Source of the DNA: Eisenbergiella tayi | GTDB taxonomy: Bacteria; Bacillota; Clostridia; Lachnospirales; Lachnospiraceae | Length of the DNA stretch: 64,000 bases | Reading direction: 5' to 3' | Assembly: GCF_001881565.1 (NCBI RefSeq) | Contig: NZ_MPDJ01000001.1 | Location: 125,966-189,965, forward strand | Part shown: positions 309 to 25,587 of the stretch, piece after piece | Position numbering within the stretch: the first letter of the stretch is position 1 | How the letters are laid out: the number at the start of each line of letters is the position of its first letter | Position numbers and translations under genes: made by a program | Notes under the pieces: model-generated | The model's database searches: none | Seen by the model: the letters and a program-made list of their open reading frames with translations, nothing else | What the model was told of the DNA's origin: nothing

Positions 309-917
309 ATGGAATTTGATTCATTGGAAATCCGCAGGCTCTTGGCAGCCCTTACGGATCGTACACGAAAGGGGGCGCTTCACTGGGAGGTGATGGAATA
401 CGATCCCATCTGCTTCATGACGGAAATGGGAATTGAATTTGATGGATCGGAAACGGAAAATTTTGCACAGAACATTGCTTTCAGCTGCCGCCTGAAAAAG
501 GGGCGCTCTATCTGGCTTGAAGTATATGAGTCCATAGGATTTCCTTCATCAGGCGGCTTCCCTTCCCTGAAGGAAGGCCCCTCACTGCGGGGGCTGGGCT
601 TCTATACCATGCGCTTTCTTTCCTCCTCGGGAAAAGTCATGTACCAGTCCGAACGTATCGTCTGCAAAAGGGAACAGCAGCTTCTGATCTGCTGCCTTGT
701 CGATGCCGTTTTTCAGGATACGGAACCTTTTTTCCTCCGTGTTTCCAGGAATAATACGATACCGTTTCAGAAATACCTGCGGCACCATGATCCCAGCGGC
801 GGGCTGGAAAACCATCCCCTGGCCCAGCTTATGAAAAGATTTTATCACGATAACCGGTGCATGGACTTTCATCTGCTGGCAATGAGCTGCGCGAACGGAA
901 GAAAAAACGGGAAATAA
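309..917 (+). CDS. hypothetical protein, convergent with the AraC gene; start uncertain
   Basis: Long ORF 147..917 whose 5' end runs into the adapter junction. Internal ATG at 309 follows a GAAAGGA ribosome-binding site. Ends in the shared bidirectional terminator. No recognisable domain. Confidence 0.3.
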   Translation: MEFDSLEIRRLLAALTDRTRKGALHWEVMEYDPICFMTEMGIEFDGSETENFAQNIAFSCRLKKGRSIWLEVYESIGFPSSGGFPSLKEGPSLRGLGFYTMRFLSSSGKVMYQSERIVCKREQQLLICCLVDAVFQDTEPFFLRVSRNNTIPFQKYLRHHDPSGGLENHPLAQLMKRFYHDNRCMDFHLLAMSCANGRKNGK

Positions 918-947
918 CCTTTCGGTCACTTCCCGTTTTTTCTTCCG
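896..947. terminator. Bidirectional rho-independent terminator between convergent genes; 18 bp stem with A6 and T6 runs
   Basis: cggaagaaaaaacgggaa (896..913) pairs with ttcccgttttttcttccg (930..947). The loop carries both stop codons. The stems encode the identical C-terminal NGRKNGK of both convergent ORFs. Confidence 0.7.
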
Positions 948-1864
948 TTCATTCCTTCCCTGGCATATTCCGTGGGGGATTTTCCGGTATATTTTTTAAA
1001 GACTCTGCTGAAATAATACTCGTCAGGGAATCCGACACTCTCTCCAATCCTGGACATCTTCAGAGGTGAATTCAGAATAAGCGCCTTGGCATGATTTATC
1101 CGAACCCGGTTCAGATATTTAAAGATGGTCTGTCCCGTTACCTTCTTAAACGTCCGGTTCATATAATCGAAATTGCCGCCGAACTCTTTTTCCAGGGACT
1201 GTCCTGTAATATCTGCCGCATATTCCCTGTTCAGGTAATTCAAAAGCTCCTGCACATTCCGGTAAGAACGGGGCTGCTTCTCCACATAGGCCACCGTTTC
1301 CTCCGTCACGCAGCTTCTGCTTATTTCCACGAAGGCCTCCAGCACCTTACAGGCCAGCAGAATTTTATAATTTTCCAGCTGGGTGATATTCCGCTCCATC
1401 GCTTCATTCAGAAGCTCCGTCACCTTCACCAGGCTGCTGTAATCATGGATATGATAGCTTTTCGGAAGGTAAAGGCTCTGGCCTTCACACTTTTCATAGC
1501 TGAAAATATCACTCTGGACAGAAGCCTGCCTGTTTTCCAGCAAAAGCTTCTGCAGTCCTTTTTCTGTCTCTTCTTCAAGGGGCTCCATATCCGGATGCCG
1601 GAAATGCACGTAGAAATACTCACACCAGGAGGCCTTCACACCCACATGGATATATCTTGGGTCCAGCACATACATATCCCCCGGCTGGAGCGTTACCGTT
1701 TCTCCGTTTTCCTCCAGATACATGACCCCTTTTTTTATCAGATATACAATATATTCGTCTGCCTTTCTGCGCCTGTGCACATAGGGCGGCTCAATCACCA
1801 CCGAATCTGCCAGTCTGACCGAAGGCAGATACTGCAGGTTTATCCGGTAAAACATATAAACCAT
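926..1864 (-). CDS. AraC family transcriptional regulator (cupin sensor plus C-terminal AraC HTH)
   Basis: 312 aa. N-terminal cupin-like region. C-terminal tandem HTH with the AraC signature (FKKVTGQTIFKYLNRVRINHAKALILNS...EYYFSRVFKKYTGKSPTEY). Confidence 0.85.
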   Translation of the reverse strand: MVYMFYRINLQYLPSVRLADSVVIEPPYVHRRRKADEYIVYLIKKGVMYLEENGETVTLQPGDMYVLDPRYIHVGVKASWCEYFYVHFRHPDMEPLEEETEKGLQKLLLENRQASVQSDIFSYEKCEGQSLYLPKSYHIHDYSSLVKVTELLNEAMERNITQLENYKILLACKVLEAFVEISRSCVTEETVAYVEKQPRSYRNVQELLNYLNREYAADITGQSLEKEFGGNFDYMNRTFKKVTGQTIFKYLNRVRINHAKALILNSPLKMSRIGESVGFPDEYYFSRVFKKYTGKSPTEYAREGMNGRKNGK

Positions 1865-1901
1865 TTCCCTTTCCCGGCCGGTTGAAGCGCTCGTTCCGTC
1901 T

Positions 1902-2936
1902 TCACTTCAGCTGTTTGCAGGAATCACGGATTACCAGGCCCGACTTCACCATCTGTACCCGGGGAGGCTCTTCATTATGGATGGCTTTTATCGCCGTTTC
2001 TATCAAAAGCTTGCCGAATAGCTTATAATCATAACCCACGCAGGTCAGCCTGGGCATGCAGGTTTCCGCAATATAGGTATTATCAAAGCTCACCACGGAC
2101 ACATCCTCCGGTATCCGCATGCCCTGCTCCCTGAGCGCCCGTACAATCCCCACCGCCGTGAAGTCATTGATGGCGATGATCGCGCTGGGCATGGGGTGAT
2201 CCTCTCTGATAAACCGGTACATCGCGGCACTGCCGCTTTCGATATCATAGCTGCTTCCATCTACAATGTATTCCTCTCTGACAGGAATTCCATACTTCCG
2301 AAGCATCTGACGGTAACGCAGCCTTTTATCCAGTGTGGATTTAACATTATCACGTCCGCCCATCAGAGCGATATCCTGATGGCCGTTTTCAATGAGAAAC
2401 TGCATCAGCAGCTCCATGGACTGCCCCTCGTCGATATTCACCTGGTAACAGTCCGCGCCGTCCAGCTTACCCGTAATCAGAATCGGCGTCGTGTTTGCCA
2501 CTCTGTTGATGTTTTCCACATAGCTGGTATCGGATACCAGCTCATCCACTTTTCCGCCGATCTGGATAATAGCATCCACCCTCTGCCCCGAAAACTTTTC
2601 CAGATAGGAAACCTCCATCTCGTTGCTCCCCAGGGAATTGCACAATAAAAGCAGATAGCCGTTTTCATTCGCCGCTTTTTCGCATTCCACCGCCATAGTC
2701 GCATAAAACGGGTTCCGTATGTCGGAGACCATCAGGCCAATCATCTTGGTCTCCACACTGCTTAAGCCTCTTGCCAGCGCGTTGGGCCTGAAATCATACT
2801 TCCTGATCAGAGCCTCCACTTTGCTCTTCTTTTCTTCACTCACCTTCGCATTGCCTGTAAGGACTCTGGAAACCGTGGCCGGTGATACGCCTGCTTCTTT
2901 TGCAATTGTATATATACTGATCGTTTCTTTTTCCAC
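1902..2936 (-). CDS. LacI family transcriptional regulator
   Basis: 344 aa. N-terminal LacI HTH (YTIAKEAGVSPATVSRVLTG). Periplasmic-binding-fold sugar sensor domain. GTG start after a GGGGGAGGA ribosome-binding site. Confidence 0.9.
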   Translation of the reverse strand: MEKETISIYTIAKEAGVSPATVSRVLTGNAKVSEEKKSKVEALIRKYDFRPNALARGLSSVETKMIGLMVSDIRNPFYATMAVECEKAANENGYLLLLCNSLGSNEMEVSYLEKFSGQRVDAIIQIGGKVDELVSDTSYVENINRVANTTPILITGKLDGADCYQVNIDEGQSMELLMQFLIENGHQDIALMGGRDNVKSTLDKRLRYRQMLRKYGIPVREEYIVDGSSYDIESGSAAMYRFIREDHPMPSAIIAINDFTAVGIVRALREQGMRIPEDVSVVSFDNTYIAETCMPRLTCVGYDYKLFGKLLIETAIKAIHNEEPPRVQMVKSGLVIRDSCKQLK

Positions 2937-3171
2937 TTTATTCCTCCCCCGTTTTCAGTTTTCCTGCACAAATTACCAATCTGCGCCTTTTTGAAACCGG
3001 TATCATTACTATTTTTATTATAATACATACCCGGGAATTAACCAAGTCTTTTCAGAAAAAAATCGGTAAAATACAAATTTTCAAAAAATCCTGCTCTTGT
3101 ACGTTATTCCGGCACGCTTACAGACAAATTTGAAGGTTTTCCGAACAAAGCTTCCATTACCATTCCTGATT

Positions 3172-4923
3172 TTATCCTATATCCGGCTCCGCCTTCAGGC
3201 TGATCTCAGGAGCCGTCTTTCCATCTGTTTCAAATAAAATAATTTCATTCCTGCCTTTTTTAAGCAGCGGCGCAGGAATATACAGCCGCTTCTGCGGCCC
3301 TATTTCCCAGAACCGTCCCAGATTGAATCCGTTGAGGAAGGCACAGCCTTTTCCCCAGCCGCCGAAATCCAGGAAGGTGTCTCCAGCTTCCTCCACCTCA
3401 AAAACAAACTTATAAAAGCCCGGTGTCCCTTCTTCATAGCCTTTTGAAAAATCCAGCTTTTCCAGATTATTAAACGGCAGTGTATACATTTCCCAATTAT
3501 AATGCATATGGCCGTTGAGCTGCACGCAGCCTGCAATTCCTTTGCGCTGGGATTCCATGAGGGGACCGAAATTCACACGGCCCATATTTTCCACCAGAAT
3601 ATCCAGAAGAGCGCCGGATTCAAAATCTGCCTTTACCTCCGCTTCTTTTAGCAGTTCCCTGTCATAAAGAGTGATCAGCGGCTTTTGATCCACAAAGATA
3701 TTCGCTCTGTCATTCGCTCCCCACAGACGGATTTTTTCCAGGTTCTGCTCTCTTTCCAGCGCTGAACGGTACAGGATGTAACCGTAGCTCTGATCCAGTT
3801 TTTCCATGGGAATCGGGAACGTATTGCTTACGGGTGAGGAAAGATCGTCAAGTACCCGGAACAGGCTTACCTTCTCCTGTACCTTCAGGGCGCCGTAATC
3901 TTTCTTTTTTATATCCGTTGAAAAAGTTACCTGGGGAAGCTGTGTGTATTTTCCGATAACTTCTCTGTATTTGTCATATTTAACGGTAAAATCTCCGGCT
4001 TCCGTCAGCACCGCATCATAATCATAGCTGGTGACATCCGGGGTCAGTTCATCATAATAATTGGAGCCATTCATAAAACCGAAATTGGTTCCGCCTTCAA
4101 ACATGTAGATATTTACATGTCCCATCTCCAGCATTTTATCCAGATCTTTTGTGCTTTCTTCCAGGTTTCCGCGCATGTGCCCGCCGTTTCCCCAGTGATC
4201 GAACCAGCCGACCCAGAACTCCGTGCACATAAGAGGGCCGCCCTCTGTGTACTTTTTAAGCACCTCAAAACGCTCTTCTGTCTTGGAACCGAAGTTTCCG
4301 GTGGGCAGCACGCCGGGAAGCCTTCCGCAGGAAAGCGACTCATCCATTGGACCGTCGGAGGTTACCAGCGGTACCTCGGCGCCATTATCCAGCATAAGCT
4401 GTTTCATGGTTTCCATATACCGGGTATCATCGCCATAGTAGCCGTATTCATTTTCCACCTGCATCAGGATAACAGGGCCGCCGTGGTGAATCTGCAGGGG
4501 AACGAGTATGGGAAACAATACGCTGTAGTATTCACGGACGGCTTCCAGAAATGGTTCATAACAGCCGCGAAGCCGCATGCCGTCTTCCTTCAAAAGCCAG
4601 GCAGGAAGGCCGCCGAACTCCCATTCCGCGCAGATATAAGGGGAAGGGCGGACAATGACATATAAACCCAGCTCCTGGGCAAGCAGGATAAACCTGCTGA
4701 TATCCAGCATACCTTCGAATACGAATTTCCCTTTTTGGGGTTCGTGCATATTCCAGGGGACATAGGTTTCCACTGTATTCGCCCCCATCGCCTTCAGCTT
4801 CTCAAGCCTGTCACGCCAATATTCGGGAACGATTCTGAAATAATGAACCGCTCCGGATATTATTTTAAAAGGTTTGCCGTCCAAATAGAAATCATCCCTG
4901 ATTTCAAAAACTCCTTTTTTCAT
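3172..4923 (-). CDS. Glycoside hydrolase family 35 beta-galactosidase
   Basis: GH35 catalytic signature GGPVILMQVENEYG. About 580 aa TIM-barrel protein. Start chosen at MKKGVFEI after an AAGGAG ribosome-binding site (ORF extends to 4953). Confidence 0.85.
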   Translation of the reverse strand: MKKGVFEIRDDFYLDGKPFKIISGAVHYFRIVPEYWRDRLEKLKAMGANTVETYVPWNMHEPQKGKFVFEGMLDISRFILLAQELGLYVIVRPSPYICAEWEFGGLPAWLLKEDGMRLRGCYEPFLEAVREYYSVLFPILVPLQIHHGGPVILMQVENEYGYYGDDTRYMETMKQLMLDNGAEVPLVTSDGPMDESLSCGRLPGVLPTGNFGSKTEERFEVLKKYTEGGPLMCTEFWVGWFDHWGNGGHMRGNLEESTKDLDKMLEMGHVNIYMFEGGTNFGFMNGSNYYDELTPDVTSYDYDAVLTEAGDFTVKYDKYREVIGKYTQLPQVTFSTDIKKKDYGALKVQEKVSLFRVLDDLSSPVSNTFPIPMEKLDQSYGYILYRSALEREQNLEKIRLWGANDRANIFVDQKPLITLYDRELLKEAEVKADFESGALLDILVENMGRVNFGPLMESQRKGIAGCVQLNGHMHYNWEMYTLPFNNLEKLDFSKGYEEGTPGFYKFVFEVEEAGDTFLDFGGWGKGCAFLNGFNLGRFWEIGPQKRLYIPAPLLKKGRNEIILFETDGKTAPEISLKAEPDIG

Positions 4924-19298: not shown

Positions 19299-19394
19299 AT
19301 ACGCAAAAAAGGCCGCAAAGAGACTTAAATCCGCCTCTTTGCGACCTGTGGGTTATTATAAAGCAATTTTTATCATTTGTAAACAGGAAATTTT

Positions 19395-19510: not shown

Positions 19511-20623
19511 TCAGGACGCATCCTTTCCCACTGTCAGTTCGGAAAGCTGTTCCAGGACACTTTTTCCGCCGTTCAGTGTAATATTACCCACCTTATCACA
19601 GATTTTCTCCAGATATTCCATTTCCTTAAGGCGCATGAGGGTCTTGTTTTCCTCCATCAGCCTCGCCGTATTCAGAAGGCTGCGTGTGGAAGCCACCTCT
19701 TCCCTGCGCATAATGACGTTGGCCTGAGCCTTTTTCTCCGCTACAAGCACGGTGTTCATAATATCCCTGATTTCACCGGGGAGGATGATGTCCTTAATTC
19801 CTGCGTTTACAATTTCCACACAGTATTCTTCCTCATTGGCCTTCATTTTTTCCAGAATGATTCCCGACAGCTCCTCTTTCTGGGAAAGCAGTTCATCCAG
19901 GCGGTATCTGCCCACATGCTCCCGGAGGATGAGCTGGGCACGGGTATAGAGCAGCGAAGCCACACCGTCCACCTTTTCCACCAGCTTTTCCGGATTGGTA
20001 ATCCGATAATTCATCACCACATTCAGGCGCACTCCCACTTTATCCGCGGTAAGGATTTCCTGGCCGGTAATGTCCAGCTGCTGGATTTTCATATTGAAAA
20101 TCTTACAGCTCACCTCCCGGCCGTAGTTCCAGAAATAATACGTGCCCGTGCCCAGACGCTTTTCAAAACGCAAATCATAGTACAGAAGGCCTGTTTCTCC
20201 GTCCTTAATCGTAATCTTCTTGTAGTATTTAGCAGGCATCAAATCCATGTAAATACGGGGAAGGGTATCCTCCATACAGGGCTGGGTAATGTCCACCATC
20301 TGGAATTCGTTCTTTTCATATACATTCCAGAACAATGTTTCCGCCCGGGTGAGCACCTCCCGGTAAGCCTTATTCACAAAACGGAGGGCAATACATTCAT
20401 CAGGAATAACTGCCTTTACCACCCGTGATGCGAAGCCTTTATCCTGCATGAGAATTTCCTCGGGGATGCCGCAGGTTTTTACCTCTCCTGTCATAGGGAC
20501 GATTTCCACCGTATAGCCGAAAGCCCTGGGATATGTATATTTACCGGCTGTAAGCAGACGCAGGAATTTACCGTTCCTGCACAGATAGCCGCATTCCTGT
20601 TCTTTGATAATAAAGTTTGTCAT
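19511..20623 (-). CDS. SPFH/Band-7 (stomatin/slipin-like) domain protein with a ~150 aa N-terminal extension and no obvious TM anchor
   Basis: SPFH-type region VGVRLNVVMNYRITNPEKLV...RDIMNTVLVAEKKAQANVIMRREEVASTRSLLNTARLMEEN. AGGAAG ribosome-binding site. Confidence 0.55.
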   Translation of the reverse strand: MTNFIIKEQECGYLCRNGKFLRLLTAGKYTYPRAFGYTVEIVPMTGEVKTCGIPEEILMQDKGFASRVVKAVIPDECIALRFVNKAYREVLTRAETLFWNVYEKNEFQMVDITQPCMEDTLPRIYMDLMPAKYYKKITIKDGETGLLYYDLRFEKRLGTGTYYFWNYGREVSCKIFNMKIQQLDITGQEILTADKVGVRLNVVMNYRITNPEKLVEKVDGVASLLYTRAQLILREHVGRYRLDELLSQKEELSGIILEKMKANEEEYCVEIVNAGIKDIILPGEIRDIMNTVLVAEKKAQANVIMRREEVASTRSLLNTARLMEENKTLMRLKEMEYLEKICDKVGNITLNGGKSVLEQLSELTVGKDAS

Positions 20624-20849
20624 GTTCTCTTACTTCCTTTCTTGTCTTACTTGTGAAAAAAGCATCCTGCTCCGCTTCCTCACCCATTGGCGGGTCCGAT
20701 TTTCAGCTTCTTTGAAAGCGGGAGGGTGGCATGCGCCGTACCCGGCGCCGCCTGCCTCACGCCCGCCGAAGCGGTATCCAAAGGGACACTGGCCGCAGAA
20801 TGAGACTGCGAAGACGGAACAGTTTCTTTTTTCTGTAATGTGATCGCTA

Positions 20850-21010
20850 TACCCGCTTAGCTACGTGTTGTACACGGTGGGATTCGAACCCACGACAAAT
20901 CATAATCTTTCGGACTTTCCTGACAGGCAGGAATTTATCCTTATGCAAACTGTCCGGAATACCTTTCCGCCAGAGGCGGAGGCACCGGTGAGGCACGCCG
21001 TGTCATCCGG
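20850..21010 (-). ncRNA. tRNA-like fragment (T-arm GTGGG-TTCGAAT-CCCAC plus 3' hairpin) downstream of rtcB; not a complete tRNA
   Basis: Minus-strand ...gtcgtgggttcgaatcccaccgtgtacaacacg. Canonical T-loop and stem, but no matching 5' acceptor strand, D-arm or anticodon arm could be built. No CCA. Confidence 0.3.
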
Positions 21011-21049
21011 TTTCCCGAAAATACACGGCCCTGTAAACCTCCCACAGTT

Positions 21050-22285
21050 TCATCCTTTAATAACGCCAATGGTTTTCAGCCGTTTTACAGGCACCACCAA
21101 ATCGGTCTGGTTATCCATGACGTCTTCGATATTTTTATAGGCAAACCGGCTTTCTTCCGCCACATCCGCCTTTCCCTTTTTTCCCAGAATAACGCCCTGC
21201 TTCTGCAAATCCAGCATGACTTCTTCACAGGTGAAGGCCGCCATGGCTCCCTTCCGGGAATACTGCCGTCCCGCCCCGTGAGAGGAAGAGCAGAAGCTTT
21301 CCGGATTTCCTTTGCCCATCACCACATAGCTGTAGCTTCCCATGGCTCCGGGTATCACCGCCAGTTCGCCGTTCCTCGCCCTGACCGCACCTTTCCGGTG
21401 GACCCATACATTTTCTCCATAATGATTCTCCAGGGCGGCATAGTTATGGTGGCAGTTGATATCGCCGGAAAATTCCAGGGTGAGATCGGTATATTTTCCG
21501 ATCCATTTTTCCAGGATTGCCTTCACGGCCAGCATCATCTTTTCTCTGTTTTCTTTGGCAAAATCCATGGAAAGCTGCATCCAGTTCAAATAATGCGCCC
21601 CTTCCTTTGTATCCACCGGCAGGAAGGCCAGCCGGTATTCATCGGGCACCTGGCTGTACCATCTCTGATTGAGTTCACGCGCTTTGGCATGAAAATAATC
21701 GCAGACGGATTTTCCAAAATGCCGGCTTCCGGAATGAAGCATCACCGCAAGGTATCCGTTATCATCTTCCTGAAGCTCGATAAAATGATTTCCTCCTCCC
21801 AGCGTCCCTATCTGAAAATATCCCGCCTCCAGTTGGCCCAGAAGCTCGGCATCCTCTTCATAACGGTCCATTTCCTCAAACGCGACATCCAGGGTGTAAC
21901 AGGGCATTTCTGTTTTGTGGTGGGCAAAGCCTACCGGAATATTACGCATGATATCCCCGACAATGGCCTGAATCAGGCTGCCATTTCCGGTCATTACATT
22001 TCTGATGTCCTCTACCCGTATGTTCGTCTCGGTATAAGCCATGCCGCAGCCGATATCCACGCCTACGGCATTGGGAATCACCACGCCTTTGGCGGCTATG
22101 ACTCCTCCGATGGGCATGCCCATTCCGGTATGGGTATCGGGCATCAGGCTTACCCATTTATGCAGAAAGGGAAGACGGGATAAATGATATGCCTGTTCCA
22201 TACACCCCTTTTCCAGATCCTTTTCCTCCTTAAGCCAAACCCTGACCGGAACCTTCATGGTGTCCGCATTATACATTACAAACAT
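21050..22285 (-). CDS. rtcB: RNA-splicing ligase RtcB (3'-phosphate/5'-OH RNA ligase)
   Basis: Metal and GTP motifs DTHTGMGMPIGGV, GGGNHFIEL, NCHHN, SSHGAGR. Start MFVMYN after an AGGAAGTGAGG ribosome-binding site (ORF extends to 22351). Confidence 0.9.
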   Translation of the reverse strand: MFVMYNADTMKVPVRVWLKEEKDLEKGCMEQAYHLSRLPFLHKWVSLMPDTHTGMGMPIGGVIAAKGVVIPNAVGVDIGCGMAYTETNIRVEDIRNVMTGNGSLIQAIVGDIMRNIPVGFAHHKTEMPCYTLDVAFEEMDRYEEDAELLGQLEAGYFQIGTLGGGNHFIELQEDDNGYLAVMLHSGSRHFGKSVCDYFHAKARELNQRWYSQVPDEYRLAFLPVDTKEGAHYLNWMQLSMDFAKENREKMMLAVKAILEKWIGKYTDLTLEFSGDINCHHNYAALENHYGENVWVHRKGAVRARNGELAVIPGAMGSYSYVVMGKGNPESFCSSSHGAGRQYSRKGAMAAFTCEEVMLDLQKQGVILGKKGKADVAEESRFAYKNIEDVMDNQTDLVVPVKRLKTIGVIKG

Positions 22286-22683
22286 ATCCTCACTTCCTTT
22301 CTGTTCATTGATCCGGAATACAGGATGTGTATTGTTTACAGATGCCTGCACCGGTTTTTGTATATTTGCAAATGTATCTTGGTTACAGGTTTATCATAAG
22401 GGGAAAATTGGTAATTATCATTTAAAAAAAGTTGCGAGGTTATGGAGAGAAAGAAAATGCTGGTTATACAGGGCTGATTTTTATCTGTAAACAGAGGGAT
22501 TTTAAAGAAGGATGGGTACTCATTTTCACTTGCCTGAAATAAAGTTCGAATTTGTGAGTATAAGAAATGCATATTAATTCGTCCATTTTTATTCCGACTA
22601 TAAGTTTTAAACTATATATACTCTTTTAATAGCATTTGTTATAATAAATTTATGAAATAACTTTTATTCAAGGGGGTATGTTT

Positions 22684-23217
22684 ATGCCGTATGCTCTAGT
22701 AGGATATTTTGATAAAGAAACGGATCATAAGATAAAAAATTTATGGATGTGCCTTGCCGATGCTGGCATTGATGATTATTTATCTAATTCAGAAAATAAT
22801 CCTCATATAAAATTTATGATGTATCAAAATGCAGATATTGATAAAATAAAAGAAGTTCTGTTTAGTCTATCGAAAACTATTTCCAAATTCCCTATTCATT
22901 TTAAGACATATAATTTTTATCCTAACGAAAAACCCTTTATTAGTATAGATATGGCTGCTGCAAAGCAAATTCTGGATTTACAAACCAAAATCAGAAGTGA
23001 ATGTGATCGATATGGTGAATTATTTGGTTTTGATGTATTTAATGAAGGAATATGGAAACCGGACTGTCAGTTGACCATAGAAATCAGTAAAGAAAAACTG
23101 CTTAAAGCAATAGCTATTTTATTAGATACTGAATTACCTTTTAATGGCACACTAGAACGAATCGGTGTGATAGAGTTTCATCCAGCAAAACAATTATTCT
23201 CTTTTGACTTACAATAA
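22684..23217 (+). CDS. Hypothetical low-GC protein; possible degenerate 2H-phosphoesterase (LigT-like) fold
   Basis: ~30% GC against ~50% for neighbours. ~178 aa with two half-motifs in LigT-like positions (PHIKF, QLTIEI). Ribosome-binding site before the second ATG. Strong hairpin terminator follows. Confidence 0.4.
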   Translation: MPYALVGYFDKETDHKIKNLWMCLADAGIDDYLSNSENNPHIKFMMYQNADIDKIKEVLFSLSKTISKFPIHFKTYNFYPNEKPFISIDMAAAKQILDLQTKIRSECDRYGELFGFDVFNEGIWKPDCQLTIEISKEKLLKAIAILLDTELPFNGTLERIGVIEFHPAKQLFSFDLQ

Positions 23218-23247
23218 ACCGTACGCTCCCACTGTTCAGCGCAAAAA

Positions 23248-23285
23248 CGCCGCCCGGTAATGATAAAAACCACTGCCGGGCGGCG
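23248..23285. terminator. Bidirectional hairpin terminator (cgccgcccgg...ccgggcggcg) between the low-GC gene and the HipA-like gene
   Basis: 10 bp GC stem. A-run upstream and T-run downstream on the minus strand. Confidence 0.65.
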
Positions 23286-23330
23286 CTGCACTTTATGAAT
23301 TATCAGTTTTTTAGTGTTTCACTATCTTTT

Positions 23331-24569
23331 TCAGGTTTCCTCCCCGCTGTATGCTACATCCTCCGCCACATCAGCCGCACGGTCATCAATGGGATATAAA
23401 TTTCGTCTTTCAACCACTACCTGAGCCAGCCGTTCCACGCGCCCCCGCAAAGCGGCGCAGAGAGCGTCTGCACGGGTCGTATCGATAAAGAGGGAGCCTT
23501 TTACCAGTTCCCGCAGTTCTTCGTCAATTCCTGCCAGTGCGTCAATATCCAGCCAGTCAAAAGAGGACACCAGCTTAATCTGCTCGTCATGAGTGGTCTT
23601 AAACGGCTTACTGGCTGCCTTTGCCCCGGCGCTTATCATCGTCCATGGCTTGTCAAACCAGAGGGACGTACCGCTGTCGTAAATCGGCGCACAGCCCGTC
23701 CATTCTAATGTGTTGACATTACGGACAGCGCCAAAATTATTCAGATGTCTGTCCTCGTTGACGATCAAATAATCCAATACCAGCATACGATCAAGACTAT
23801 CCCTTACGCCGGGGATACCCAACGCTTCACAGCAGTTCAGATAATGCTGATAAACCGAAACGTGATTGGGTTTTGGCTGTGTCTGATAAATGTGCCATGC
23901 CGTTACCAGCTCCGTATCCGGATCAATGAAATCCTCGCATACACTGTATGGGTAATCCTCCGGTACGGCCAGTGTATAAGGTACATGAGGAATATGCAGC
24001 CGCTCCATGATTCTGCTTGCCAGCACCTCGTTGTACGGCTCCTGCTGAGTCGCGCCGCTGCCGCCTTTAAGCAGAAAGCGTTTTCCATCCATGATCGTCC
24101 ATTTTTTCTTTAACCAGCCATCTGAGGTATTATCCGGTGACATCAGGCTTACCTCTCCTCCGCTGGATGGGTGCCCAAACAGGATATTACCAACATCTTC
24201 AGTAAAGGAATTTTCAAAGAAATTAACTTCATGCCATGAAACCTGTCTGTCGACAGGGCAAATCCAATACTGGTCCGACAGGGAAAGCCCAAGGCATTTC
24301 TCCAATAACGCATGCGGGGAACTGATGTGCAGTTCCTCCAGCGCATGGCGCAGACCGGATCTGCTTGCAGGGATTGCCCGTCCCTGCCACCATGCATTGA
24401 GCGCAGCGCGGTCAATTTTACCCTTTTTTACAGGGATACCCACCGGAATATGGGCCGTGTCAAATAACTCTACAACAGCGGAAACAGAGGCAGTCGCACT
24501 GTCCAGACGGATTTTGGCCACAGGGATTTCCTTATGCATTAAAATGTATGTTTGAATTGTTTCTACCAT
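23331..24569 (-). CDS. HipA-like Ser/Thr kinase family protein with no adjacent HipB
   Basis: HipA C-terminal catalytic motifs VLDYLIVNEDRHLNNFG and YDSGTSL. No XRE-type HipB upstream on this strand (68 bp gap to the next gene). Start MVETIQ after a GGAG ribosome-binding site (alternative 24638). Confidence 0.65.
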   Translation of the reverse strand: MVETIQTYILMHKEIPVAKIRLDSATASVSAVVELFDTAHIPVGIPVKKGKIDRAALNAWWQGRAIPASRSGLRHALEELHISSPHALLEKCLGLSLSDQYWICPVDRQVSWHEVNFFENSFTEDVGNILFGHPSSGGEVSLMSPDNTSDGWLKKKWTIMDGKRFLLKGGSGATQQEPYNEVLASRIMERLHIPHVPYTLAVPEDYPYSVCEDFIDPDTELVTAWHIYQTQPKPNHVSVYQHYLNCCEALGIPGVRDSLDRMLVLDYLIVNEDRHLNNFGAVRNVNTLEWTGCAPIYDSGTSLWFDKPWTMISAGAKAASKPFKTTHDEQIKLVSSFDWLDIDALAGIDEELRELVKGSLFIDTTRADALCAALRGRVERLAQVVVERRNLYPIDDRAADVAEDVAYSGEET

Positions 24570-24705
24570 TTTTCTAACTCCAGTCTTTTGTAGTGTTATT
24601 CTAACGAATTGCAGAAACTTAAACAAGCTGTTTTCCACATCAGCGCTCTACCTTTATCATAGCTTTTCCGGATCCGGTTATCAATGATACAATAAACTTT
24701 TTATA

Positions 24706-25587
24706 TTAATCTTCCAGTATCTCATGAACCTCTTCCGGAGTAATTCCGCATGTCTGCGCGACTTTTGCTTCACTCATGCCCTCCGCAGAAAGCTTTATTA
24801 CTTTTTTAGTCAGCAGAATCCCTTCCCTGAGGCCCTGCTTCTTCCCTTTTTTGATTGCATTCTCTTCAATCGCTTCACTCAGATTGCACATTTCACTCAG
24901 CTCCTCTCCCAGTTCATATTCCATTTTCATTCCGTAATCCCGCTCCAGCGACTCTTCTTTTTCCTTCCTGTCCATTTCTGGTGACAGAAGCGTATTCAGA
25001 AAACCATGGAGTGTTCCTTCGGTCCCCTTCTTAAGTTTATCATACTCGGAATTCGAAAATTCCCGGTCCAGCTGTTCAGACAGCATTCTGGCTCCATAAA
25101 ATATCCCGCGGGTTACAATACGGTATTTTACATAAAATTTCTTCTGGGCCTCCACGTTAATCAGCAGCTTGATTTCCGTTTTTTTGTTCTTGCCCGGCAG
25201 AAAAGCACGGAACCGGATATCGTAGGTTATCGTTCCCTCTCCCGGAACCTTGCTTTCCGTGTTCTCCCCGTTTATGAGCCGGTCATCCATTTTTTCTTCG
25301 CCGGGACACAGCGGTACGCTGGCTATTTCGATATCAGGCTCAATCCAGAGAGTTATTTCCTCCGGGGAATAAGAACGGTACCCCTCAATCGTACCTTTTA
25401 ATATCCGGGCCAGAACCTGCCGGCTCCCCAGGATACGTTTTACATGCTCGTCATACTGTGCCTTTATCCCGGCAGTGTCCAGCTCCCGGGATATCCATGT
25501 CTTTCTCTTCATCCATACCTCCTTGATGCGGCAGGGATCGAAAAAGCCATTTCGCCGGACTTCTGTTTCAATTCCTGCCATGTTCAT
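24706..25587 (-). CDS. Rpn family recombination-promoting nuclease / putative transposase (PD-(D/E)XK, YhgA-like)
   Basis: N-terminal YDEHVKRIL, like the Rpn HDxxFK block. Nuclease-core blocks TYDIRFRA and LINVEAQKK. C-terminal basic KKG-type repeat tail. Confidence 0.55.
   Translation of the reverse strand: MNMAGIETEVRRNGFFDPCRIKEVWMKRKTWISRELDTAGIKAQYDEHVKRILGSRQVLARILKGTIEGYRSYSPEEITLWIEPDIEIASVPLCPGEEKMDDRLINGENTESKVPGEGTITYDIRFRAFLPGKNKKTEIKLLINVEAQKKFYVKYRIVTRGIFYGARMLSEQLDREFSNSEYDKLKKGTEGTLHGFLNTLLSPEMDRKEKEESLERDYGMKMEYELGEELSEMCNLSEAIEENAIKKGKKQGLREGILLTKKVIKLSAEGMSEAKVAQTCGITPEEVHEILED

Follow-up and report, generated by a model that had tools for sequence, protein, structure and literature searches.

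In a 64,000-nucleotide (nt) stretch of the Eisenbergiella tayi genome (contig NZ_MPDJ01000001.1, positions 125,966 to 189,965; hereafter the window, to which all positions refer), the region between rtcB, the gene for an RNA ligase, and an SPFH/Band-7 gene contains a stem-loop of the tRNA TΨC type, and the question raised by this locus is what such an arm belongs to. The initial annotation, made from the letters alone, read the stem-loop on the minus strand together with a short hairpin following it, and offered two origins for it, either a tRNA mimic like that of the YrlA Y RNAs or a 3′ tRNA fragment left as the scar of an attachment (att) site. The present analysis indicates that the T-arm almost certainly belongs to a circularly permuted tRNA-like module with the fold of YrlA RNAs. 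For the locus as a whole, the explanation we consider very probable is that this module sits in a Band-7-associated RNA of about 397 nt, co-transcribed from a conserved promoter.

The permuted tRNA-like module

The sequence GTGGGTTCGAATCCCAC (GTGGG-TTCGAAT-CCCAC, minus strand, 20877-20893) has a single match in the window even when up to two mismatches are allowed, so no second copy is present there, and it had 0 matches in 100 dinucleotide-preserving shuffles and is therefore not expected by chance. The reading of it as a TΨC-type stem-loop is thus upheld. A hairpin, CGTGT-ACA-ACACG (20876-20864, minus), follows directly on its 3′ side and is stacked on the T stem. The genes on either side are also on the minus strand, and the names given to them earlier were confirmed by Pfam: RtcB lies upstream (PF01139, E = 5e-109) and SPFH/Band_7 downstream (PF01145, E = 2e-26). 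ARAGORN found 0 tRNA and 0 tmRNA genes in the 64 kb, in agreement with the statement that the element is not a complete tRNA gene, and no Rfam family reached its gathering score in the window. The gap between the two genes, which had been singled out for folding, folds below its shuffled controls (z = -4.3).

When the intergenic region was scanned permissively with Rfam, YrlA (RF02553) aligned with 20841-20901 (38.2 bits, E = 7e-7). This alignment spans model positions 23-86, which make up the tRNA-like domain only, and the gathering score of the family is 69. The covariance-model scan that had been proposed for YrlA and tmRNA thus returned a partial match for the former, below its gathering score, and for the latter 12.6 bits over the T-arm only. 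The tmRNA, Plastid-psbl-rps4 and frameshift-site matches of the permissive scan were rejected as covering the T-arm only or as chance-level, and the Rfam tRNA family gave no match in either the strict or the permissive scan. The elements of the module are as follows.

20841-20902, minus: tRNA-like module in YrlA-type permuted order (Rfam YrlA partial match, model R1, covariation, Levitt pair, minimum-energy fold)
20902-20898, minus: 5′ strand of the closing stem, TGATT (RNA: UGAUU)
20897-20894, minus: 4-nt linker UGUC, like a variable loop
20893-20877, minus: T-arm, GUGGG-UUCGAAU-CCCAC
20876-20864, minus: capped acceptor-like hairpin, CGUGU-ACA-ACACG
20863-20862, minus: UA, like U8/A9
20861-20846, minus: canonical D-arm, GCTA-AGCGGGTA-TAGC (RNA: GCUA-AGCGGGUA-UAGC)
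20845-20841, minus: 3′ strand of the closing stem, GATCA (RNA: GAUCA)

The closing stem of 5 base pairs (bp) occupies the place of the tRNA anticodon stem and encloses the T-arm, the hairpin and the D-arm, and the minimum-energy structure of the isolated 68 nt is exactly this four-way junction. Among the arms that had been reported as impossible to reconstruct, the D-arm does exist, 3′ of the T-arm in permuted order, and the short hairpin is the capped equivalent of the acceptor; the anticodon arm is absent, as reported.

Conservation and covariation

The module was compared across 80 loci (designated by L numbers), which were fetched from a one-genome-per-species collection via an alignment of Band-7 relatives and which all come from Clostridia, mainly Lachnospiraceae and Oscillospiraceae. 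Among them are L009 from [Clostridium] symbiosum ATCC 14940, L058 from Anaerocolumna xylanovorans DSM 12503 and L079 from Robinsoniella peoriensis. In almost all of the 80 the coding strand has a T-loop motif at a distance of 250-700 nt before Band-7, and a scripted search showed that the order of the arms is identical across the relatives while the helix sequences are different. Covariance model R1, built from 49 modules, gave one match in the window (20838-20905, minus, 73.2 bits, E = 1.6e-21), and 75 of the 80 loci (species-level genomes) had a coding-strand match ahead of Band-7, a proportion that describes this clade only, since the loci were picked as Band-7 relatives. Two of the five loci that it missed have less than 240 nt of upstream sequence.

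In the R1 alignment 92.5% of the cells were paired, compared with 36-49% when the partners were slid, the covariation score was 0.705 versus at most 0.115 in the slid controls, and double changes occurred in 16 of the 19 pairs; alignment A3 was fitted to the structure, so that the pairing counts are somewhat inflated, but the margin is large. Compensatory changes were present in all four helices of the module. The Levitt pair 15:48 covaried as well, being G:C in 50, A:U in nine and A:A in one of 60 sequences. In the same 60 sequences A14 and the T-loop positions were invariant and U8 was kept in 58, so that U8, A14, G18G19, G53-C61 and the T-loop UUCRANU are all near- or fully invariant. The helix covariation, the Levitt pair and the near-invariant tRNA nucleotides therefore indicate, at the level of sequence, that the module RNA is under selection to fold as a tRNA-like L-shape.

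The relatives vary around this common fold. The acceptor-like stem, 5 bp with a 3-nt loop in the window, has 3-9 bp elsewhere. Many relatives (L020, L021, L030, L035-L068, L080; for example L051:3323-3570) carry two to four T-arms about 60-90 nt apart, that is, tandem tRNA-like modules. An Rfam 'tRNA' call in L051 (3420-3482, 40 bits) bridges two adjacent modules, and ARAGORN calls odd tRNAs in L057, L066 and L080. In L028 the RNA follows rtcB as usual (923-1122) and Band-7, at 4001, is about 2.9 kb further on, which suggests an insertion between the two.

Beside the module, many relatives also have a hairpin like an anticodon arm, with a stem of 4-5 bp and a 7-nt loop (for example L023:3564-3640, L045:3620-3700, L050, L058, L066), and in a subgroup of the L039-L079 type the anticodon arm, T-arm, capped acceptor and D-like arm make up a complete permuted tRNA. 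G34-U35 was present in 26 of 69 such hairpins, from 25 loci, compared with 2 on the reverse strand and 0.7 in shuffles, and the loops concerned read CUGUCAA, CUGUAAA, CUGUCAC, CUGUUAA and CUGUGAA. U33-G34-U35 is the mark of the Asp, Tyr, His and Asn (queuosine) tRNAs, which are recognised by tRNA-guanine transglycosylase and by anticodon nucleases of the colicin E5 type. No such UGU-loop hairpin was found in the window's RNA.

The RNA around the module

Between rtcB and Band-7 lie about 430 nt in the window, and close relatives have 420-660 nt at this place. On the minus strand this gap is taken up by a structured RNA of about 397 nt, from 21050 to approximately 20654 (both ends inferred), with the module as its central domain. 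Besides the module, the following parts were recognised.

20945-21050, minus: 5′ domain, a three-way junction of helices P1, P2 and P3 (model R2, covariation, per-sequence folds)
20917-20933, minus: extra hairpin UUCCUG-CCUGU-CAGGAA, then GUCCGAAAG; an insertion common only to the window and its closest relative, L001
20654-20834, minus: 3′ domain, closed by a long helix (folds, own-partner test, motif enrichment)

In the 5′ domain, P1 is a long-range helix, AAACUGU/ACAGUUU, with the rtcB stop codon overlapped by its 5′ strand; P2 and P3 are hairpins, the latter with a near-invariant base formed by GGUGCC (20986-20981) and GGUAUUCCG (20963-20955), written GGUGCC...GGUAUNCCGG among the relatives. 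RNAalifold on the raw MAFFT alignment of this upstream region gave five pairs, and that alignment was replaced by per-sequence folds and a trimmed alignment. The structure was drawn by hand and tested on a sequence-only MAFFT alignment of 17 relatives, from which the window and L001 were excluded. In that alignment 82.7% of the cells paired, compared with 34-46% after sliding, the covariation score was 0.445 versus at most 0.164, and 24 of the 29 pairs had double changes; none of 500 shuffles reached the observed values of pairing or covariation. Model R2, also made without the window and L001, had a single match in the window (20945-21043, minus, 32.9 bits, E = 1.6e-7) and gave matches directly 5′ of the tRNA-like module in 55 loci, many of which were not in the seed.

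The stretch between the extra hairpin and the module (20904-20916, minus) reads (G/C)UCCGAAAG in the window and L001; no strand pairs with it, and its conservation does not extend beyond these two. We take (G/C)UCCGAAAG and GUCCGAAAG to resemble the GGUCCGA strand of metazoan Y RNAs. L001 has an additional hairpin, aacauCUACCAAauguu, after the module, which the window does not have.

The 3′ domain is closed by a helix in which GAAAAAAG..CUGUUCCG.CUUC pairs with GAAG.CGGAGCAG..CUUUUUUC, and it contains two near-invariant motifs, GGAUACCG (20779-20772) and AAGCUGAA (20709-20702). The MAFFT alignment of this region was structurally inconsistent at the closing helix, and for this reason a duplex test was used in which each strand was paired with its own partner and with the strands of other species. 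The mean energy was -27.5 kcal/mol with the own partner versus -20.4 kcal/mol with the others, and the own partner ranked 1-3 of 21 in 16 of the 21 sequences (permutation p < 1/5000). The GGAUACCG motif, searched as GGAUACC[GA], was present in 51 of the 80 loci, at 1.0 per kb compared with 0.06 per kb elsewhere. The internal structure of the 3′ domain is provisional. Neither flanking domain had a match in Rfam. A T-box was considered, GGAUACCG resembling UGGUACCGCG, and rejected, as there was no Rfam T-box match at E ≤ 10. In the window the RNA ends about 30 nt, and the tRNA-like module 218 nt, before the start of Band-7.

Promoter, terminator and gene order

The features that frame the RNA in the window are listed below.

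22393-22438, minus: conserved promoter region, with CTCGCAAC at 22438-22431, T7-AAATGATA at 22430-22416, a 17-nt spacer and the -10 box TATGAT at 22398-22393
21050-22285, minus: rtcB, RNA 3′-phosphate/5′-OH ligase, 411 residues (PF01139, E = 5e-109)
19511-20623, minus: Band-7/SPFH ('slipin') gene, 370 residues (PF01145, E = 2e-26)
19310-19347, minus: strong terminator-like hairpin, 15 bp and T-run, at the end of the rtcB-RNA-Band-7 unit

A promoter-like site was predicted at 22421-22393 (minus), and in 62 of the 80 loci the cassette opens with an element aGTTCGCAACTTTTTT(T/G)AAATGAT-N17-TA(A/T/G)(G/A)AT, whichever gene comes first. Where rtcB is first the element lies upstream of rtcB; otherwise it lies 50-70 nt before P1 of the RNA, and in several loci without upstream rtcB the -10 box ends about 5-10 nt before P1. 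The start of rtcB is likely the ATG at 22285, behind the ribosome-binding site (RBS) GGAAGTGAGGA, while the mechanical open reading frame (ORF) extends to a GTG at 22351; gene callers on identical contigs report the 411-residue RtcB, and the 5′ untranslated region (UTR) from the promoter is then about 100 nt. Judging from the order of these signals, promoter, rtcB, RNA, Band-7 and terminator appear to form one unit, in which the RNA would be co-transcribed with both genes. The motif GTTCGCAAC, whose centre is near -49, is almost palindromic and may be the site of a regulator. A sigma-54 promoter, by analogy with the RtcR-controlled rtcBA, was rejected on account of the GG/GC spacing, which does not fit, and the window copy has no GG.

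Across the 80 loci only Band-7, RtcB and a pair of proteins, one with a WYL domain, were recurrent neighbours. In 44 loci a close RtcB is encoded upstream, in 14 (L039, L044, L045, L049, L052, L055, L062, L065, L066, L069, L070, L073-L075) a distant paralogue of RtcB (about 29% identity) is found on the downstream side of Band-7, and in 22 the fetched flanks hold no rtcB. All three groups retain the RNA, whose linkage is tighter to Band-7 than to RtcB. In L019 an RNA 2′-phosphotransferase, Tpt1/KptA (2912-3442, +), is directly upstream of the RNA, in the place of rtcB. The WYL-domain protein (about 414 residues) and its partner (about 300-335 residues, no Pfam match) adjoin the cassette in about 60 of the 80 loci, divergent or co-directional (for example L009:1884-3128(-) with 917-1924(-), and L079:1369-2616(+) with 2616-3527(+)), and are likely regulators. 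Neither was found by tblastn in the 64-kb window, though the promoter element is kept there.

Weighing the alternatives

Certain points weigh against the reading as a Band-7-associated RNA that acts on its own, besides the selection of the loci and the fitting of the alignment already mentioned. The search for terminators in the window found no intrinsic terminator between the RNA and Band-7, which would allow the RNA to work purely in cis, as a 5′ UTR, and the ends of the RNA and any function in trans are deduced from sequence.

The alternative that survives best, although we consider it unlikely, is that the whole region is not a free RNA and is a cis-acting leader of Band-7, which would control translation or transcript stability through a tRNA-recognising protein or by sensing damage. 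In favour of this, the region invariably directly precedes Band-7, in the same orientation and with no terminator in between, and where there is no upstream rtcB the conserved promoter leads directly into the RNA and then into Band-7. However, neither a conserved terminator/antiterminator pair nor a helix sequestering the RBS was seen; at least 30 nt, in a spacer of varying length, separate the closing helix of the 3′ domain from the RBS; and a complete tRNA-like tertiary fold that includes nucleotides of modification sites typically belongs to RNAs acting in trans, such as YrlA and tmRNA. Roles in cis and in trans are mutually compatible.

Less probable still is a genuine YrlA Y RNA, which would bind a Ro60 (Rsr) protein encoded elsewhere and tether it to an effector. 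YrlA is the best Rfam match, with identical arm order and tertiary pairs, and is occasionally adjacent to Band-7 genes (Wang et al. 2018, bioRxiv 10.1101/312249). The YrlA domain is likewise a circularly permuted tRNA-like one, and the RNA also has the Ro-binding motif GNCGAAN0-1G (Chen et al. 2014, RNA 20:1715, PMC4201824). The strict motif is absent here, and at the gathering threshold YrlA had no match in the window or in 16 related loci, the 38.2 bits over positions 23-86 falling short of 69. GUCCGAAAG, 5 nt upstream of the closing stem, could be counted in favour for its presumed likeness to GGUCCGA of metazoan Y RNAs, but it occurs in the window and L001 only. On both sides of the closing stem the sequence folds into other covarying domains, which leaves no terminal stem: a search by hand for a Ro-type stem pairing GUCCGAAAG with downstream sequence found none, the candidate 3′ strand being already engaged in the covarying closing helix. 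No TROVE domain was detected in the 40 window ORFs scanned, which include all those of at least 230 residues, as the initial annotation had said of Ro60/TROVE genes in the window, and the conserved neighbour is Band-7. Thus the proposal of a YrlA-like tRNA mimic was right about the fold, in which RF02553 positions 23-86 align and covariation extends over 75 loci, and does not hold for a Y RNA in the strict sense.

That the permuted module is a precursor ligated or circularised by RtcB, in the manner of permuted tRNA genes or tRNA-intron circles, so that the RNA would be its substrate and not a cofactor, is very improbable. The ligase is encoded next to the module, and the order of 3′ half before 5′ half resembles that of permuted tRNA genes. 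Against this, no bulge-helix-bulge motif was seen and the RNA persists in the 22 loci that have no rtcB nearby. The acceptor-like stem of 5 bp (3-9 bp in relatives) is also too short for RNase P or RNase Z, which need about 7 bp (Chen et al. 2014, PMC4201824).

The att scar, a 3′ fragment of a decayed tRNA bounding the low-GC, HipA-like island beyond rtcB, has in its favour a tRNA-type T-arm with no detectable full tRNA, and the low GC content at 22200-23400 with the HipA-like gene nearby, but it is ruled out by the permuted arm order, in which the D-arm lies 3′ of the T-arm as truncation of a tRNA could not produce, by compensatory changes in four helices and a tertiary pair, and by a place and orientation relative to Band-7 that are constant in 75 of 80 species; moreover the element is inside the rtcB-RNA-Band-7 unit and not at an edge, every related locus has different flanking genes, and the window holds no second copy of the sequence.

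The Band-7 protein and a possible function

No transmembrane segment was found in the Band-7 protein, the maximum 19-residue Kyte-Doolittle mean being 0.95, and the protein is predicted to be soluble. Its C-terminal half is homologous, by sequence matches in the PDB, to stomatin, QmcA and HflK, which have been solved as assemblies of 16 to 26 subunits. The AlphaFold2 model (pLDDT 82) has three N-terminal beta domains, the SPFH domain and a helix of 62 residues. Foldseek matched this predicted structure to cage-forming SPFH proteins (E = 1e-13 to 1e-7), and the longest alignments were to the major vault protein (MVP), with 414-479 columns, a query-normalised TM-score of 0.45-0.50 and E of about 2e-8. 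The model also aligns with stomatin, HflK/C, prohibitin, erlin and flotillin, and with MVP over the full length. As far as the model goes, the protein thus resembles stomatin and MVP. Band-7 relatives were not found in viral contigs, and no PADLOC defence-system model matches Band-7 or RtcB.

These features suggest a function for the Band-7-associated RNA. Band-7 might assemble into an oligomeric, cage-like particle of which this RNA would be a subunit or cofactor, and the tRNA-shaped domain would then recruit factors that recognise tRNA, such as RtcB and modification enzymes, or alternatively would serve as bait for nucleases that target tRNA. Either route would couple tRNA damage to repair by RtcB, as analogies with Ro60 and YrlA and with the vault and its RNA suggest. 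By these analogies a mechanism as particle or cofactor is quite possible, but we would not call it probable. The UGU-loop hairpins give a hint of a link to nucleases or modification, which comes from the relatives and not from the window.

More tentatively, and with clear doubt about the combination as a whole, these elements may be joined into one multi-domain RNA class of about 400-650 nt, not described as such, with a 5′ three-way junction bearing the near-invariant GGUGCC/GGUAUNCCGG, one to four permuted tRNA mimics, a 3′ domain with the invariant GGAUACCG hairpin and the long closing helix, and often a mimic of the anticodon arm (7-nt loop, U33-G34-U35). With the soluble, MVP-like Band-7 protein this RNA might form a bacterial vault-like particle that baits or senses anticodon nucleases and passes damaged tRNA to RtcB, under a promoter that would probably be controlled by the WYL pair.

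The bacterial substrates and cofactors of the widespread RtcB repair operons are poorly known, and this RNA is a tractable candidate for a missing cofactor. Dozens of gut Clostridia keep it together with a soluble, vault-like SPFH protein, and standard annotation overlooks it, ARAGORN being blank and the best Rfam match below threshold. The models and coordinates given here for the module, the 5′ domain and the promoter element enable such loci to be found and annotated.

Neighbouring genes and occurrence

The low-GC stretch at 22200-23400 (33-36% GC) includes an ORF of 179 residues (22678-23217, +) that matched no family. Adjacent to it lie a HipA_C-like kinase gene (23331-24638, -), which matches the PADLOC candidate system PDC-M03A, and an ORF of 293 residues, also without a match (24706-25587, -). 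The gltB, HipA-like, orf179 and orf293 genes of the window were in the flanks of no related locus.

The exact Band-7 protein with the rtcB, HipA-like and gltB neighbourhood (L081-L083) occurs in 1172 blocks of the assembly collection, including metagenome assemblies, and an identical locus is present in the NCBI genome GCA_042853185.1, on contig BAABXS010000003.1. Sampling of the organism thus seems to be wide.

Comparison with known RNAs and particles

A canonical tRNA has the cloverleaf order of acceptor, D-arm, anticodon arm, T-arm and acceptor, and open ends, and the window RNA has neither. With tmRNA (RF00023) it shares a tRNA-type T-arm, the extent of the 12.6-bit match, whereas an open acceptor end, an mRNA-like region and a tag peptide are all missing.

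Burroughs and Aravind reportedly proposed in 2016 a scaffolding role, as cofactors, for SPFH/Band-7 and Rot/TROVE modules, together with cognate RNAs, namely 'a novel tRNA-like molecule' and Y RNAs. The portion of Wang et al. 2018 (bioRxiv 10.1101/312249) that deals with this prediction credits Burroughs and Aravind 2016 (Nucleic Acids Res) with a system of RtcB, Band-7 and a Band-7-associated tRNA-like RNA (b7a-tRNA), obtained by comparative genomics, describes the RNA with the words 'strongly resemble an authentic tRNA', and presents it as being without experimental validation. The window RNA is very probably a member of these b7a-tRNAs. It is tRNA-like, adjoins a Band-7/SPFH gene and stands in an operon with RtcB. 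RtcB is found in shared operons with MVP homologues in bacteria (PMC13404743, 2026 preprint, citing Burroughs and Aravind 2016), and an MVP homologue as protein partner agrees with the Foldseek result obtained here. Band-7 is also contained in rtc loci of Proteobacteria, such as P. aeruginosa PA14_60630 (PMC13086221). As regards the likeness to an authentic tRNA, the T-arm, D-arm and tertiary pairs are indeed tRNA-like, and a few relatives are called as tRNA by ARAGORN or Rfam. Membership is made less secure by the circular permutation of the window element, by its lack of an anticodon arm and its rejection by ARAGORN, and by the comparison being with the description in Wang et al. 2018 and not with the original alignment. 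The architecture of the larger RNA, the promoter element and the UGU-loop hairpins, which may or may not be contained in the 2016 prediction, are the part most worth pursuing.

The closest known fold is that of YrlA (RF02553). Both RNAs have the order stem, variable region, T-arm, capped acceptor-like stem-loop, D-arm and stem, both keep the conserved tRNA nucleotides and a covarying 15:48 Levitt pair, and both are often encoded beside rtcB. Unlike YrlA, the window RNA has no Ro-binding terminal stem (model positions 1-22 and 87-114 are unaligned), no GNCGAAN0-1G motif and no rsr/TROVE neighbour, its score is below the Rfam threshold, and its partner gene is Band-7. The RNA that holds the module also measures about 400 nt, compared with 80-130 nt for Y RNAs.

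The vault consists of MVP, vault RNA and the TROVE protein TEP1. The modelled Band-7 protein is like MVP in having N-terminal beta domains, an SPFH 'shoulder' and a long helix, and both systems would combine a structured RNA with a cage-forming protein to which it is tied genetically or physically. The Band-7 protein has 370 residues, compared with about 800-900 in MVP, and the RNA sequence is unrelated to vault RNAs. The likeness is structural and inferential. Should the RNA and the Band-7 protein together make up a particle, bacteria would have a counterpart of Ro with Y RNA and of the vault with vault RNA, eukaryotic ribonucleoproteins of debated function, and the proposed link to RNA repair would be testable in a simple system.

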